64,000 nucleotides of DNA from a bacterium (lineage in GTDB: Bacteria > Acidobacteriota > HRBIN11 > JAKEFK01). The stretch covers positions 14,164-78,163 of the forward strand of contig JAKEFK010000211.1 of the NCBI GenBank assembly GCA_022616075.1. The letters run 5' to 3'. Shown piece after piece: positions 56,122 through 60,731 of this stretch. The position numbers were made by a program, and so were the translations under genes. The first letter of the stretch is position 1. The number at the start of each line of letters is the position of its first letter. Below the pieces are notes generated by a model that saw only the letters and a list, made by a program, of their open reading frames with translations, had not been told where the DNA came from and ran no database searches.

Positions 56122-59079
56122 TTAGAAACTGTACTTGAACCCTAAACGGACCGCGCGTGGAGAAAGATTCTCCTGCAGGTCGTTGAAGGTTGCAGTAGTA
56201 ACGCGTCGTTGTCTTTGGACAACTGTGTTCGAATTGGTAACGTTAAACACGTCCAAAGCCAATGTAACGCGACCGTAATTGGAAAGTTCAAACACCTTCT
56301 GAACATTAAGATCGAGTGTGAAGAGGTTGTCGTAACGACGTTCTCCGATGGGTTCGAGCAGGATCAACCTTGCATCACCGTAGAAGTTCAACAGATTTCC
56401 GGAAGAAATCTGTGCAAACAACGGTTGGGGGAAGCCCTGCTGATAACGGACGAACCCGCCTGCGCTGAGGTCCCACGGGAACTGATAGATACCGCTTGCG
56501 CGGAAAGTCCATTCAGCGAACGGGAACACACCAGTCTTACCGCTGCCGCCGCTTGCAAATGCATACGGCTGCTCGTCGTAGAAGCTGACGAGTGTCGGAT
56601 CGGCATAGACTGCGCGCGAAGCAATTCCATCACCGGTCACAACGAAGAAAGAATCGCCACCATCATAGTGCGCCTTCTGGCGTTGCAACGTGACGAAAGC
56701 GTTCAACATGAAATTGTTGCTCATACGCTTCCTGATTCCAAGGTCAACACCATTGTAGGTTTGCGTATAGCCATCAATTGTTTTCAGCAGTTGGGAGCCA
56801 TCGTGTTCGAAGGTGATATCGCTGAAAGGAATGGAAACTTGCCCGGTCACCGGATGATTGAAAGTAAATACTCCGGCTGGAGCGTAATCCTCAGCAGTTA
56901 CACCAAACGGAACTACCTGAGTGAAGTTATCATACGTGCGATGTGTAAAGGAAACGTACGCAGCAAGATCCTTGACAACTTCACGTTCGAAACCGACAAC
57001 AAATTCGTCGGTAACAGCAGATTCAATATTACCGATTTTGGTGAACTCATCGAATCCTTCCTGAGTGAATGGGCCAGGACGTGCGCCACCATAATACCCA
57101 CCAACTGAGTCGATCTCGTTAGGATCAATCAGACGGTCGCCGTTCAGGTTCGTGTAATAAAGAATCACACCGTTATAAACATAGGTTGGATTGGCGTACT
57201 GATCGTAGAACGGGACATAACCATCGTAATAGCGGGCATAGTTGCCGCGAACAATGGTCCTGCCATCGCCGCTAATATCGTACGTTGCTCCTAACCGCGG
57301 AGAAATGTCTGTGTATACATCACTCCGGTCATTTCCTGCAAAATCTACGCCGGAAATGAACTGTTCGAATCCGCCGGGTGCCGGAATGGATGACGCCTGG
57401 TTTTCACCGGACGCGCTATCCACACGGAAGCCGAGGTTCAGCGTCAACCGATCCATGCGCCATGTATCAGTCACGTATCCACTGGCACGGTAATAATTCA
57501 TCGTGCCATTAAGGAAGCGCTGAGCATAGATAGCTCCGTAGGTCAATGGACCATTCGCTACGGTCTGGCCGTAATCAACAATCAACGCGCCATTTCCATA
57601 GCTGCTGAATGTATGACCTTCGGAAGCCTTGTATTCGAATCCAAACTTGAACTCGTGATCGCCACCCAACCAGCTCTCTCTGAACCAGTTCACGTCAGCA
57701 TTGAAATCATGGGACGGACGATCAATCGGGCTCACGTTAAAAGATGTATCTTCCCAATGCGGAATGCTGGCTAGATAGATCATCGGAATTTCGCAAGGTG
57801 TACTGGGTGCACAGTTTCCACCATTGGGAGCGAGTTCAAAGCTTAATCCAATGTAGCCATAGCGGCCATTGATGATCGTGTGATCATTGGGAATGAAGGT
57901 ATGCTGAGCGGTCCAGATCCCTTCCAGGATCGTTCCGGGGCTTCCCTGTTGCCACAATGTTTCTTCCGCTTGAGTCGGCGGATCGAAACCACGACCATCT
58001 TTTTCCTTGGCTCCGTCAAAGTATCCAAATTGAGATTCGTTTGCGGAGTTTGCATTGAAATTCACTTTGAAATTCAGATCCGTTAACTTCGTTTTGTCAC
58101 TGAGTGATTGTCCGGTAAAAGGATTCGTCACTCTTGTGAACAAATCGATCTGGTTTCTACGCCAGGCGCCCCATGCAAAGAGTCTGTCTTTTACAACAGG
58201 ACCGCCGATATCGAAACCCACGTCATAAACCTGATCGATTCTGTTCGAACGAAGCACACCAAGTTCGATCAACTCATCAGGTGTGTTATCACTCTGAAGA
58301 GAATCGTTTACAAAATAGTAAGAAGCGTTTGCTTCCCACTTATTTCCAGCACGTTTTGTAACGAGGTTAACAACAACACCTTTCGATCCCACGGAAGCAT
58401 CCATGCCGCCACTTTGAATCTGGATTTCTTCAAAGGCGTCGAAATCATAGTAAGTGGGGGAAGCTCCCAGGGATAAAGGATCTGTTGCGTTGACACCGTC
58501 ATAGTTCCAGCCGTTATCTGTATCGGCTGCGCCGCGCGCAAAGAAGCCGGTCTGCTGACCGGATTCGGAACCGGCAATGTTTACGCGATCATTGTCGACT
58601 CCGGGAGTCTGCTCAATAATGACCCAGGGATCGCGTCCCGAAGGTACTTTGTCCAGATACTCACGATTGAAAGTAGATTCATTACCCGTTTTCTTTGTAT
58701 CGACAACGGGTGTTTCCGCCACAACCACGAACTCTTCGGTTAAGGTTGGTCTCAATGTGATGTCCAATTGGACTCCACCGCCAACACTTACCCGAATTTC
58801 CTCCTGTCTAACTTCCGTAAATCCTTCGATACCGAAGGTTGCAGAGTAGATACCGGGAGGAAGGTTCGCAAAACGAAAACCACCGGTTGGACCGGTCGTC
58901 GCAGTTTGCGGCTGAATCTCATTTGATTCCAATGTAACAGTCACGCCGGGCAGAGGGGCCCCCTTTTCATCTATTACTTTGCCGTAAATCGATCCTGCTC
59001 TGGTAGAAACTTGTGCCATCACAGGAGCTACAGCAAGTGCTAGAAGCGCAATTGCTACGAGGAATATTTTAAGCTTCAT
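56122..59079 (-). CDS. Oar-like TonB-dependent receptor with carboxypeptidase-regulatory-like N-terminal domain
   Basis: Signal peptide, GAPLPGVTVTL, PSGRDPW..I..TPGV, VNLVTKRAGN, beta-barrel, terminal YSF. Confidence 0.92.
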   Translation of the reverse strand: MKLKIFLVAIALLALAVAPVMAQVSTRAGSIYGKVIDEKGAPLPGVTVTLESNEIQPQTATTGPTGGFRFANLPPGIYSATFGIEGFTEVRQEEIRVSVGGGVQLDITLRPTLTEEFVVVAETPVVDTKKTGNESTFNREYLDKVPSGRDPWVIIEQTPGVDNDRVNIAGSESGQQTGFFARGAADTDNGWNYDGVNATDPLSLGASPTYYDFDAFEEIQIQSGGMDASVGSKGVVVNLVTKRAGNKWEANASYYFVNDSLQSDNTPDELIELGVLRSNRIDQVYDVGFDIGGPVVKDRLFAWGAWRRNQIDLFTRVTNPFTGQSLSDKTKLTDLNFKVNFNANSANESQFGYFDGAKEKDGRGFDPPTQAEETLWQQGSPGTILEGIWTAQHTFIPNDHTIINGRYGYIGLSFELAPNGGNCAPSTPCEIPMIYLASIPHWEDTSFNVSPIDRPSHDFNADVNWFRESWLGGDHEFKFGFEYKASEGHTFSSYGNGALIVDYGQTVANGPLTYGAIYAQRFLNGTMNYYRASGYVTDTWRMDRLTLNLGFRVDSASGENQASSIPAPGGFEQFISGVDFAGNDRSDVYTDISPRLGATYDISGDGRTIVRGNYARYYDGYVPFYDQYANPTYVYNGVILYYTNLNGDRLIDPNEIDSVGGYYGGARPGPFTQEGFDEFTKIGNIESAVTDEFVVGFEREVVKDLAAYVSFTHRTYDNFTQVVPFGVTAEDYAPAGVFTFNHPVTGQVSIPFSDITFEHDGSQLLKTIDGYTQTYNGVDLGIRKRMSNNFMLNAFVTLQRQKAHYDGGDSFFVVTGDGIASRAVYADPTLVSFYDEQPYAFASGGSGKTGVFPFAEWTFRASGIYQFPWDLSAGGFVRYQQGFPQPLFAQISSGNLLNFYGDARLILLEPIGERRYDNLFTLDLNVQKVFELSNYGRVTLALDVFNVTNSNTVVQRQRRVTTATFNDLQENLSPRAVRLGFKYSF

Positions 59080-59128
59080 ACGCTCCTCCTAATGAGAGTT
59101 AATGTGTGTTCAAGAACGACCTCCTTTT

Positions 59129-59144
59129 CGCAAGAGTCGTGCCA
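59129..59144 (-). promoter_or_regulatory. Sigma54 (-24/-12) promoter of the TonB-dependent receptor
   Basis: TGGCAC-GACTC-TTGCG on the minus strand, 50 nt upstream of the ATG. Confidence 0.8.
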
Positions 59145-59324
59145 TCAATTTCTCGTCGGTCTCGTTGGCACATTCATTTCCAAACAGGAGTGAGTGGTTC
59201 TTCAATTGGAACCGTGTAAAGTACCTTTCGTATCCGATTGTGGAACTGTGGAGCCTTGTTTCGTACGGTTCAATCCCGGATTCGCCACAACGAGCGATAA
59301 TTCAGCTTATTGGAGTTTTAACTT

Positions 59325-59391
59325 AACACAGAGGCGCAGAGACACAGAGAAAAACATTTTTCTAATCTCTGTGCCTCTGTGTCTCTGTGTT
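59325..59391. repeat. Inverted-repeat element with (A/G)CAGAG triplet arms
   Basis: AACACAGAGGCGCAGAGACACAGAGA versus reverse complement of 59366-59391: 23/26 identical. Confidence 0.88.
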
Positions 59392-59394
59392 GAA

Positions 59395-59763
59395 TTAATC
59401 TACTTTATTAGATTTGCGGGCGGGGAGTGTGAGTGCGAGCTTGTCAACAAACTCGTAGAAGCGGTCTTTGTAATTCCGGCTCCAGGTCAGTTCTGTGCCG
59501 TCACTAAGGATCACGTGATATTCACCTTTCAACCATGGTTTCAATTCCCGAATCGAATCGACGTTCACGATATAGGAGCGATGGATCCGAATAAACGATT
59601 CAGGATCCAATTCCCCCTCCAGAGTCTGGATACCGGCGCGCACCGGATAATAATTCCCTTCACAATGAAGATGACTGTATTTTCCTTTGGCCTCAATCCA
59701 GTGAATTTCTTCCTGATTCACAAACAACAAGCTTCCACTAGAGCGAATCAAGAGTCTTTTCAT
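59395..59763 (-). CDS. Stand-alone LytTR DNA-binding domain protein
   Basis: EIHWIEAKGKY, FIRIHRSYIVN, G.ELTWSRNY; no receiver domain. ATG 59763 or TTG 59811. Confidence 0.85.
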   Translation of the reverse strand: MKRLLIRSSGSLLFVNQEEIHWIEAKGKYSHLHCEGNYYPVRAGIQTLEGELDPESFIRIHRSYIVNVDSIRELKPWLKGEYHVILSDGTELTWSRNYKDRFYEFVDKLALTLPARKSNKVD

Positions 59764-59831
59764 TTTCTTCTTCTTATTGTCCCCTCTTGATTTCAAATCC
59801 ACATCCTCCAAAAGAATGAGGCGACTGCCAC

Positions 59832-59891
59832 AAAAAAGGGCGACTCCATTTCAGAAGCCGCCCTTCTCCTTCGTAATGAAGGAGCCATGAG
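59832..59891 (-). ncRNA. Candidate small structured RNA A (conserved CUCAUGG + hairpin + terminator)
   Basis: CTCATGGCTCCTTCATTACGAAGGAGAAG, then a GGGCGGC/GTCGCCC stem and U-run. 5' end unknown. Confidence 0.45.
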
Positions 59892-60052
59892 GACTAAACA
59901 TTAAGACGAAAATGAAAAGCAAAAGGTTGTGTAAATTTGAAAAATTTTTTGGGAGGAAGAAAAGATAGTTCTAAAGAATGAAAACTTTATCCCTCCTTTT
60001 CAGCTTGTGCGGAAATGAACACCTGGTGTCTGATAGAGTCGTTAACTCCTCT

Positions 60053-60115
60053 CTCATGGCTCTTTCATTGTGAAAGAGAAGATGGCGATCTTCCCCACAG
60101 ATCGCCATTTTTTTT
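60053..60115 (+). ncRNA. Candidate small structured RNA B (paralogue of A, opposite strand)
   Basis: CTCATGGCTCTTTCATTGTGAAAGAGAAG (25/29 identical to A), then an ATGGCGATC/GATCGCCAT stem and T8. Confidence 0.45.
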
Positions 60116-60121
60116 AAGCTC

Positions 60122-60196
60122 AACCGCCAAGGCGCCAAGAACGTCAAGAAAAAACTAAAAATATTTTGACGTTGGTGCCATAGCGTCTTGGCGGTT
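60122..60196. repeat. Inverted-repeat element with GCCAAG triplet arms (degenerate right arm)
   Basis: AACCGCCAAGGCGCCAAGAACGTCAAG ... AGCGTCTTGGCGGTT. Confidence 0.8.
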
Positions 60197-60200
60197 TGAA

Positions 60201-60731
60201 TTATTTACAAACCTGTTCTTCACCTGTAACAAAGAATTTCGTACGCACCACTTTCGCAATCCCATTTCCGAACACTGTTACGACATACAGGTTGTCATAA
60301 TCCGAATCGTCAATCTCCTGGACCTCGCCGCCTCCCAGCGCCTCAATAATCTCGGGCAAAGTATTGCTGTGACCCACCACGAGAACGGTTCCGCCAGAAT
60401 GCTTCGACAAAATCGATGCTACTAACTTATTCGTAGTTCCCGCATCTACCGTTTCCAGGGAAATGCGCAAGCGTTTCGCAAGCGGTTCACCGGTCAATCT
60501 CGTTCGTGCGAATTGCGACGTGTAGATTGCATTCAAGCCTGAGTTTTCGAACATGCGCACCAGAAGCTCCGCTCTTGCGACGCCTTGAGGCGACAGTGGA
60601 GGATCGTCTCCGGAGGTTACGACCTTTTCGGCATGTCGAACGAGAAGGACGGTTGTGAGTTTTTGTTTCCCGAATGCAGCGCCACTCAAAAGAAAATAAA
60701 AAAGAACAATCAGTAATGTAATTCGTTTCAC
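60201..60731 (-). CDS. Secreted histidine-phosphatase-family protein (SixA/phosphoglycerate-mutase-like)
   Basis: LLVRHAEK, PPLS..G..RA, VLVVGHSNT. GTG 60731 has a GGAGAG RBS. Confidence 0.88.
   Translation of the reverse strand: MKRITLLIVLFYFLLSGAAFGKQKLTTVLLVRHAEKVVTSGDDPPLSPQGVARAELLVRMFENSGLNAIYTSQFARTRLTGEPLAKRLRISLETVDAGTTNKLVASILSKHSGGTVLVVGHSNTLPEIIEALGGGEVQEIDDSDYDNLYVVTVFGNGIAKVVRTKFFVTGEEQVCK

Follow-up and report, generated by a model that had tools for sequence, protein, structure and literature searches.

What is encoded by a short intergenic segment in which two copies of one 29-nucleotide (nt) motif stand back to back, each running outward into a transcription terminator? The segment lies in a 64,000-nt stretch of Acidobacteriota DNA (hereafter the window; all positions are window coordinates), the sequence of which is contained in contig CDKODR010000011.1 of the metagenome-assembled genome (MAG) GCA_975752425.1, and it is flanked by a LytTR-only regulator gene and by the 3' end of a His_Phos_1 gene. 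Here we describe the two copies, termed A (minus strand) and B (plus strand), which on their sequences can be taken as real paralogues of one RNA-like element. We put the probability that A and B are sibling base-pairing small RNAs (sRNAs), with A serving in addition as the terminated leader of the LytTR gene, at about one half.

Acidobacteriota are among the most abundant bacteria of soils and sediments, and their genomes carry very many CarboxypepD_reg/TonB-receptor-like genes. We know of no regulatory RNA that has been characterised in this phylum, and none came up in literature searches; searches for the motif itself, or for a circuit of LytTR regulators, sigma-54 and TonB receptors in Acidobacteria, likewise returned nothing relevant. 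The locus presents such a circuit in testable form, combining LytTR regulators, sigma-54-type receptor promoters and putative small RNAs with a seed that matches the ribosome-binding sites of receptor and kinase genes. If this is true, a dedicated post-transcriptional layer would serve the hugely expanded receptor repertoire of the phylum, giving a way into the question of how uncultured members of the phylum select their nutrient receptors, as well as a new RNA family for the databases. If the RNAs are not expressed, what would be left is two paired, well-conserved terminators and an invariant motif in need of explanation.

Two divergent copies share one fold

A degenerate form of the 29-mer has exactly two matches in the 64 kb of the window, with none expected from 100 shuffles: copy A at 59863-59891 on the minus strand and copy B at 60053-60081 on the plus strand. 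The copies are 161 bp apart, point away from each other and are identical at 25 of the 29 positions, just as an earlier note on this DNA, made by reading the sequence alone, had described them; the four differences are accounted for by the swap of a stem C-G pair for U-A and by two loop bases, which that note had also seen. Tolerating up to three mismatches gave no further match to the 29-mer in the window. RNAfold assigns to both copies the same layout, consisting of an unpaired CUCAUGG, a hairpin of 7-8 bp (hairpin 1), a linker of 2-3 nt and a G+C-rich terminator hairpin of 10-13 bp, followed by U6 in A (ending at 59832) or U8 in B (ending at 60115), in agreement with the earlier view that each motif leads directly into a strong U-tailed hairpin. 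The fold Z-scores are -3.7 and -4.3 for A and B, respectively, and none of 200 shuffles folded as well.

Copy A as a whole occupies 59831-59897 on the minus strand and scores 80.1 bits with the covariance model introduced below. A short 5' tail precedes its seed CUCAUGG (59885-59891), which is followed by hairpin 1 with the arms CUCCUUC/GAAGGAG (59866-59884) and by the terminator hairpin GGGCGGCUUC/GGAGUCGCCC with its U6 (59832-59863), all on the minus strand. Copy B spans 60047-60115 on the plus strand (78.7 bits), with the same seed at 60053-60059, hairpin 1 formed by CUCUUUCA/UGAAAGAG at 60060-60078 and the terminator AUGGCGAUCU/AGAUCGCCAU with its U8 at 60082-60115, all on the plus strand. 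The U-run of A ends at 59832, 22 nt before the Shine-Dalgarno (SD) sequence of the LytTR gene, 35 nt before its likely TTG start and 68 nt before an alternative ATG, which falls within the 20-70 nt estimated earlier. Copy B is an orphan: no gene follows it on its own strand, a feature that had been remarked on before, and it converges on the 3' end of the His_Phos_1 gene, which lies on the minus strand.

The element is conserved at the level of RNA structure

Another 12 orthologous loci retain both copies with position and orientation unchanged (copy A in 12 of 12); the gene order there is His_Phos_1, the diverging pair B and A, the LytTR-only gene and the TonB-receptor-like gene, and the LytTR proteins are 78-92% identical to that of the window. 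Scans for the pattern in 185,579 species genomes and in JGI metagenomes added the paired loci L010, L021, L025/L027, L026, L032 and L034, together with two single copies, L011 and L019, in the Acidobacteriota MAG swi_bin.31; under the strict pattern, carriers amounted to 2 of the 185,579 species genomes. The other matches of these scans (eight genome and ten metagenome loci) were set aside as chance hits with long gaps, no terminator and at most 26 bits with the model. The element-carrying relatives are labelled Acidobacteriota, as are the more distant receptor homologues, and the metagenomes in which the source locus is found come from sediments, caves and soils.

With a covariance model trained on 24 distinct copies, true copies score 58-80 bits and everything else scores at most 31 bits. 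In the window this model and a descriptor scan found no copies besides A and B, and a local high-copy repeat can thus be dismissed. No Rfam family matched. An Rfam 15 cmscan of positions 59300-60700 (E up to 10) returned only sub-threshold chance matches over the element, including ar7 (28 of 60 bits), RsaE (18.5 of 79 bits), ar14 and CC2171, and the Acido-1 and Acido-Lenti-1 motifs, which the earlier note had singled out for comparison, were absent altogether from its list.

When the named structure is applied to a MAFFT alignment, pairing is kept in 93% of cells, and in six pairs both bases change. None of 500 column shuffles reached the observed percentage of pairing, the number of double-change cells or the covariation score, and 17 of the 500 reached the count of six double-change pairs; when the 3' partners were slid as a control, pairing fell to 44-63%. 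RNAalifold predicts both hairpins independently. The informative pair of hairpin 1 is C-G in the A-type copies, L005_B, L011 and L019 and U-A in most B-type copies, with U-G intermediates in L004_A and L034_B, and the terminator tips covary as well (for example CUUC/GGAG, CCUC/GAGG, CUCU/AGAG, CCCUGC/GCGGG). Copy A contains conserved G-U pairs, one of which is swapped for A-U in L034, and the terminator of copy B contains U-G pairs in L008 and L025. Because such pairs would be C-A mismatches on the opposite strand, the sense strand folds better: it is the more stable one in 20 of 24 copies, with an advantage over the antisense fold of about 7 and 2 kcal/mol for A and B, respectively. An intrinsic terminator with a G+C-rich stem of 10-13 bp and a tract of U6-U9 is present in all 26 distinct copies found, and the 10-mer CUCAUGGCUC does not change in any of 24 copies, the variable parts being loops, linkers and terminator tips. 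Homologues with conserved structure, which the earlier proposal of an RNA family had called for, are thus available in 12 further loci, complete with compensatory changes and strand-specific G-U intermediates.

These data bear on two explanations that would need no regulatory RNA. The inverted arrangement of A and B could represent the arms, enclosing around 160 bp, of a mobile or dispersed repeat resembling a miniature inverted-repeat transposable element (MITE) or a repetitive extragenic palindromic (REP) sequence, and a genuine REP-like palindrome does adjoin copy B at 60117-60197. The check for a high-copy dispersed repeat nevertheless came out negative: the 64 kb contain two copies, the known total for the MAG is three, and the strict pattern is confined to 2 of the 185,579 species genomes; synteny is stable across loci at 78-92% protein identity, there are no target-site duplications, and the arms do not lie at insertion ends relative to the orthologues. 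We consider a mobile origin highly improbable.

The same low standing applies to a small-protein or leader-peptide gene starting at the AUG within CUCAUGG (MAPS... or MALS...). This AUG is found in 26 of 27 family members, and short open reading frames (ORFs) exist, for example at 59793-59888 and 59978-60073 (31 amino acids (aa) each). Against a coding function, a frame-by-frame comparison revealed no conserved open frame through A or B across the orthologues, indels shift the frame, and the ORFs vary in length between 4 aa and over 30 aa; it is the nucleotide sequence that is conserved, even at third codon positions, copy D (below) has AUA in place of AUG, and no SD precedes the AUG. A peptide-coding role is therefore very hard to credit.

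Diverged copies accompany other receptor genes

Following the homologues of the receptor gene led to two diverged copies, C and D. Copy C belongs to the same MAG (contig CDKODR010000025.1, L040 2864-2932) and has a receptor gene on one side and a second LytTR-only gene on the other, within a cluster ordered as LytS-like kinase, REC-LytTR regulator, receptor, copy C, LytTR-only gene and receptor. It has kept CUCAUGGCU, differs in its stem (UCUCCGUU/AGCGGAGA) and in its terminator, and is followed by a good sigma-54-type box, TGGAAC-N5-TTGCA. Copy D (L043 6600-6665), situated between two receptor genes and beside a kinase/regulator pair, reads AUCAUAGCUUCUCC; its AUG is lost (AUA instead) and its CAU is retained. 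The two single copies of swi_bin.31 stand between a REC-LytTR regulator and a receptor gene, about 35 nt before the receptor SD, and in L011 a LytS-like kinase is found alongside the REC-LytTR regulator. The association of the element with a LytTR-family regulator and a TonB-receptor-like gene holds across at least four architectures.

This spread of contexts matters for a further rival, according to which A and B are ordinary terminators combined with DNA signals: B would end the amidohydrolase/His_Phos_1 operon bidirectionally, A would insulate the LytTR gene and the motif would be a regulator box. In the orthologues the terminator of B comes right after the His_Phos_1 stop, a terminator scan reported its hairpin on the minus strand as well, with a weak CUUCUCUUUC tail, and the control region between A and B contains a conserved palindrome and promoter-like blocks. 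The copy B hairpin may indeed be a bidirectional terminator that also ends the His_Phos_1 transcript. Its U7-U9 tract, however, is on the plus strand, opposite to the His_Phos_1 strand, and T-G wobble intermediates and compensatory changes preserve pairing in the sense-strand RNA, whereas a DNA box needs no trailing hairpin of variable sequence but maintained pairing. Since the motif occurs in unrelated promoter contexts (C, D and L011/L019), it is not tied to one promoter. We regard terminators plus DNA signals as a quite unlikely account of the locus.

The invariant core matches translation initiation regions

The invariant core 5'-UCAUGGCUCCUUC comprises, read 5' to 3', an anti-AUG followed by an anti-SD sequence (UCAU-GG-CUCCUUC), the order needed for covering an initiation region; CUCAUGG is unpaired, and the anti-SD part forms the 5' arm of hairpin 1. 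The earlier idea of a CUCAUGG seed can accordingly be sharpened to UCAUGGCUCCUUC, an anti-AUG plus anti-SD segment matching the initiation regions of TonB-receptor-like and LytS-like kinase genes, and the CCAUGAG-type start-codon context that it predicted has one such match, GGGAGCCAUGAG at the kinase gene of L043.

Complementarity was examined at 63 called gene starts from eight loci. Contiguous runs of at least 12 bp (12-15) were found in 5 of the 13 receptor/kinase module genes vs 0 of the 50 other genes, and the receptor initiation regions had lower duplex energies than the rest (Mann-Whitney p = 4e-4). The level of five hits was attained in 0 of 1000 trials with shuffled cores and in 0.1% of trials (1/1000) with generic cores in which CAU and CUCC were kept and the other positions randomised; these controls argue against chance complementarity. 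A search confined to the window with long seeds was noisy and not significant alone; the target search gave usable information only once the 15-nt core was combined with called gene starts.

In the orthologues and in a paralogous receptor gene of the same MAG (L036), the initiation region is AGGAGGAGCUAUGAAG, of which the pairing part GGAGGAGCUAUGA forms 13 contiguous bp with A and B (with A, 11 Watson-Crick and 2 G-U pairs). The receptor of the distant locus L045 has AUGGAGAAGCUAUGA, a perfect 15-nt complement of the seed of copy D that also forms 14 bp with C; the G-to-A change in D converts a G-U pair with this receptor to A-U. Among the LytS-like kinase genes, the initiation region GGGAGCCAUGAG (L043) forms 12 bp with the invariant core, and AGAAGUCAUGAG (L042) forms 12 bp with C, a copy of the same cluster. 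In the window itself, the predicted target site is the initiation region GGAGGAGCGUAUGA of the TonB-receptor-like gene (59076-59089, minus strand), which pairs with UCAUGGCUCCUUC over 8+5 bp at -18.9 kcal/mol and is among the roughly nine best sites in 128 kb.

On this basis we propose that A and B would yield RNAs some 60-75 nt long, each ending at its own intrinsic terminator and transcribed outward from a shared control region of about 150 bp. The unpaired CUCAUGG would serve as a toehold, the anti-SD arm of hairpin 1 would be opened by strand invasion, and the invariant 5' segment (C)UCAU-GG-CUCCUUC would then pair, in trans or in cis, with the initiation regions of genes of the LytS/LytTR and TonB-receptor-like module, most likely blocking ribosome binding. 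The best-matching targets would be the receptor gene just after the LytTR gene, its paralogues and at least some LytS-like kinase genes. As A is the 5' leader of the LytTR gene, a single promoter, of the extracytoplasmic function (ECF) sigma type to judge by its sequence, would give both a mostly terminated sRNA and a minority of read-through LytTR mRNA.

A number of observations weigh against this proposal. The target analysis was post hoc, and common descent links several of the 63 initiation regions. At the receptor site of the window there is a 1-nt bulge (one extra G), the receptors closest to C, D and the L011/L019 copies match only in part (whatever the core, the longest run is 5-8 bp), and the anti-SD half of the seed is locked in hairpin 1 (-8 to -10 kcal/mol). 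Promoters of B, C and D could not be identified. Nor does the module always include the element, of which there is no copy near the paralogous LytTR-receptor pair of the same MAG (L036) or at the distant locus L045. Finally, the locus is found in DNA-type metagenome runs only; three runs filed under 'rna' contain short fragmentary contigs of unclear kind, with element-like sequence in other contexts, and are uninformative on transcription. The broadest form of the proposal, in which A and B would represent the first described sRNA family of Acidobacteriota, composed of sibling anti-initiation-region RNAs within LytS/LytTR modules, through which sigma-54-transcribed TonB-receptor-like outer-membrane proteins and the sensor kinases of the modules themselves would have their translation set or switched, is offered as a tentative one.

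The control region and the possibility of attenuation

Upstream of copy A, a candidate promoter on the minus strand (59902-59932) consists of ACACAACC at 59925-59932, a 16-nt spacer and CGTCTTA at 59902-59908, its -10-like block ending 10 nt upstream of CUCAUGG. The blocks ACACAACCTTT and TTCGTCTTA upstream of A are invariant and keep a fixed spacing in 12 of 12 distinct orthologues, with variation, including indels, in the spacer and flanks. Read as AAC-N17-CGTC, the promoter looks like one recognised by an ECF sigma factor, since it fits the general consensus for that class. An ECF-type promoter would put the 5' end of A a few nt upstream of CUCAUGG.

The best-conserved block in the approximately 150 bp between A and B is a near-invariant palindrome at 59966-59981 (orthologue consensus TCGTTCTAAAGAACGA, window sequence TAGTTCTAAAGAATGA), which may serve a dimeric regulator as its operator. 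For LytTR domains, direct repeats rather than palindromes are the usual binding sites. Clear AgrA-type direct-repeat boxes (9 bp, about 12 bp apart) were not seen in the window, and imperfect ACCGT repeats, 20 nt apart, were present only in L011/L019. On the side of copy B, a weak candidate extended -10, TGATAGAGT, lies at 60031-60039 on the plus strand, 13 nt upstream of CUCAUGG. The orthologues retain two blocks upstream of B, AAATGC(A/G)AT and T(G/T)ATA(G/A), with variable spacing between them; the second block stands 6 nt or else 13-14 nt from the seed, and conservation does not extend to the last T of the hexamer. A sigma-70 promoter scan of the gap gave no match. A sigma-54 promoter for B was considered and rejected: TGGCAC-like boxes occur in some orthologues only, with the -12 GC one base too far away, and the window has no such box. 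Also in this region, the sequence CCCTCCTTTT at 59991-60000, put forward earlier as an upstream anti-SD element, is present as described, but it is not kept in the orthologues, and its SD-like reverse complement has no start codon after it; we discarded it.

The LytTR-only gene (minus strand; Pfam LytTR, E = 1.7e-25) has the SD sequence GGAGGA at 59804-59809, a TTG start at 59796 (133 aa) or an ATG at 59763 (122 aa), and its stop at 59395. Its homologues are mostly called at 133 aa, and the arrangement of GGAGGA, a 7-nt gap and TTG is kept in most orthologues. As we see no room for a separate promoter between the terminator of A and this SD, expression of the LytTR gene probably depends on read-through of that terminator. 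The segment before the LytTR start (59788-59812, minus strand) also bears the conserved sequence CUCAUUCUUUYGGAGGAUG, in which a small hairpin, CAUUCU/AGGAUG, is possible and would partly cover the SD; it may provide extra translational control of the regulator.

Read-through leads to the main rival of base-pairing sRNAs, namely that the copies are factor-dependent attenuators, i.e. regulated terminators in which CUCAUGGCU plus its hairpin binds a protein or RNA factor that decides on read-through, B being a decoy or a relic leader. Copies A, C, D and L011/L019 are located directly upstream of a LytTR or receptor gene (the position of a 5' leader in A, C and L011/L019), the distance from U-tract to SD is only 20-35 nt in A and L011/L019, and in the window no separate LytTR promoter is visible between terminator and SD. 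Other features are hard to reconcile with attenuation. No upstream complement of the 5' arm of the terminator and no conserved alternative fold were found, the minimum-free-energy and centroid folds of longer leaders keeping both hairpins; the hairpin loops are unconserved, which makes a ligand pocket unlikely; and a good sigma-54-type promoter of its own follows copy C. For copy B there is no gene that could be attenuated, although the copy is kept with compensatory changes in 12 of 12 orthologous loci, and the 12-15 nt of complementarity to initiation regions are left unexplained. The duplicated attenuator that had been an option in the earlier note has accordingly lost ground, there being no antiterminator alternative and no explanation for an orphan yet conserved B, and we judge regulated termination possible but doubtful.

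Comparison with known regulatory RNAs

If A and B are base-pairing sRNAs, their design has several counterparts. The CiaR-dependent csRNAs of Streptococcus are sibling sRNAs with anti-SD and anti-AUG sequences under response-regulator control (PMC3091779). The present family is like them in having several highly similar, terminator-ended putative small RNAs per genome, each with a CAU and an anti-SD stretch able to cover an initiation region, and in its tie to a two-component/response-regulator system. Unlike in the csRNAs, in which the anti-SD and anti-AUG sequences both lie between two stem-loops, the anti-AUG is here at an unpaired 5' end and the anti-SD in the first stem; the regulator family is LytTR as opposed to the OmpR-type CiaR, the phylum is another one, and expression is here a prediction from sequence. 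No similarity to the csRNAs was detected by Rfam or covariance model, and the element is thus csRNA-like in its predicted function without being a member of that family.

OmrA and OmrB of enterobacteria are adjacent sibling sRNAs that repress the mRNAs of TonB-dependent receptors and other outer-membrane proteins. A and B share with them the arrangement of neighbouring paralogues with a common 5' seed and terminator layout and differing sequence in between, and also, by prediction, TonB-dependent receptor mRNAs as targets. OmrA and OmrB are arranged in tandem, OmpR-controlled and Hfq-dependent, whereas A and B diverge and A doubles as the leader of a regulator gene; Rfam OmrA-B does not match A or B, and the two pairs are not homologous. 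MicA and RybB are Sigma-E-dependent sRNAs that are expressed from ECF-sigma promoters and repress outer-membrane protein mRNAs. Should the AAC-N17-CGTC promoter of A truly be ECF-dependent, the likeness would extend to an envelope-type sigma factor, a short sRNA with a 5' seed and outer-membrane protein mRNA targets, although there is no homology and the targets here are predicted ones.

The arrangement of the locus also recalls the agr P2/P3 region of Staphylococcus, where the operon of a LytTR regulator stands beside a divergent promoter for RNAIII (514 nt), an RNA that targets Shine-Dalgarno regions. Here, too, back-to-back units about 150-180 bp apart lead into a LytTR gene on one side and, by prediction, to a regulatory RNA on the other. 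RNAIII is unrelated in sequence, the conserved site here is a palindrome, and the LytTR protein has no receiver domain. Lastly, A, C and the L011/L019 copies resemble terminator attenuators and small riboswitches such as preQ1-I in combining a short hairpin with an intrinsic terminator in a 5' leader; they differ from these in having no antiterminator, variable loops and a conserved orphan copy, and in that the conserved part is an unpaired antisense-like stretch. In silico, the element has two of the features expected of a base-pairing sRNA, a 3' intrinsic terminator and a conserved accessible seed with non-random complementarity, and a novel sRNA family of conventional design is the best-supported reading.

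Neighbouring genes and further observations

On the minus strand the order of features is amidohydrolase, His_Phos_1 (60201-60731, from Pfam and gene calls), copy B on the opposite strand, control region, copy A, LytTR-only gene and TonB-receptor-like gene. The last of these (56122-59079, minus strand) encodes a protein of 985 aa with CarboxypepD_reg/Plug domains and is preceded by a putative sigma-54-type -24/-12 promoter, TGGCACGACTCTTGCG, at 59129-59144 on the minus strand, which was identified by sequence and is given as context, outside the RNA element. An alignment places TGGCA(C/T)-N5-TTGCG before the receptor gene in all orthologues and paralogues. More generally, all TonB-receptor-like (CarboxypepD_reg) genes examined have a sigma-54-type box (TGGCAC-N5-TTGC and variants) 40-80 nt before the ATG, including those at 59129-59144 (minus strand) in the window, L036 ~4520, L040 ~3440, L042 ~3422, L043 ~3446 and L045 ~9944. 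Near these promoters no enhancer-binding protein was found, the adjoining regulators being of the LytTR type.

The MAG holds at least three pairs of LytTR-only and TonB-receptor-like genes, one of them within the kinase/regulator/receptor/LytTR-only/receptor cluster. The receptor of L036 (contig CDKODR010000104.1) is 86% identical to that of the window, as opposed to 72% for the syntenic orthologue in L006, and the paired LytTR proteins of L036 and the window are only 56% identical, which suggests a recent duplication or gene conversion of the receptor. Runs X10-X12, compared with window positions 59831-59936, contain 160-180-nt contigs, of unclear run type, that are copy-A-like and have flanks diverging just outside the element; one of these contigs retains CGTCTTAAT upstream. 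They hint at further family members in other genomic contexts.

Two structures near the element are of a different kind. At 59314-59402, right after the LytTR stop, there is a near-perfect long hairpin with a stem of about 35 bp, rich in CACAGAG/CTCTGTG and devoid of a U-tract; long hairpins of diverged sequence occupy the same place in the orthologues. Rfam miRNA-precursor matches to it (E down to 1e-5, all below the gathering score) were dismissed as reflecting a long hairpin and no homologue. The other structure, at 60117-60197, is an insertion between the terminator of B and the His_Phos_1 stop that forms an imperfect palindrome of some 80 bp (AACCGCCAAGGCGCCAAGAACGTCAAG...CTTGACGTT..GGCGTCTTGGCGGTT). 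It is missing from most orthologous loci, and its core (60122-60154) has matches in metagenome contigs where the flanking sequence is unrelated, which suggests a dispersed element of the REP/MITE kind.

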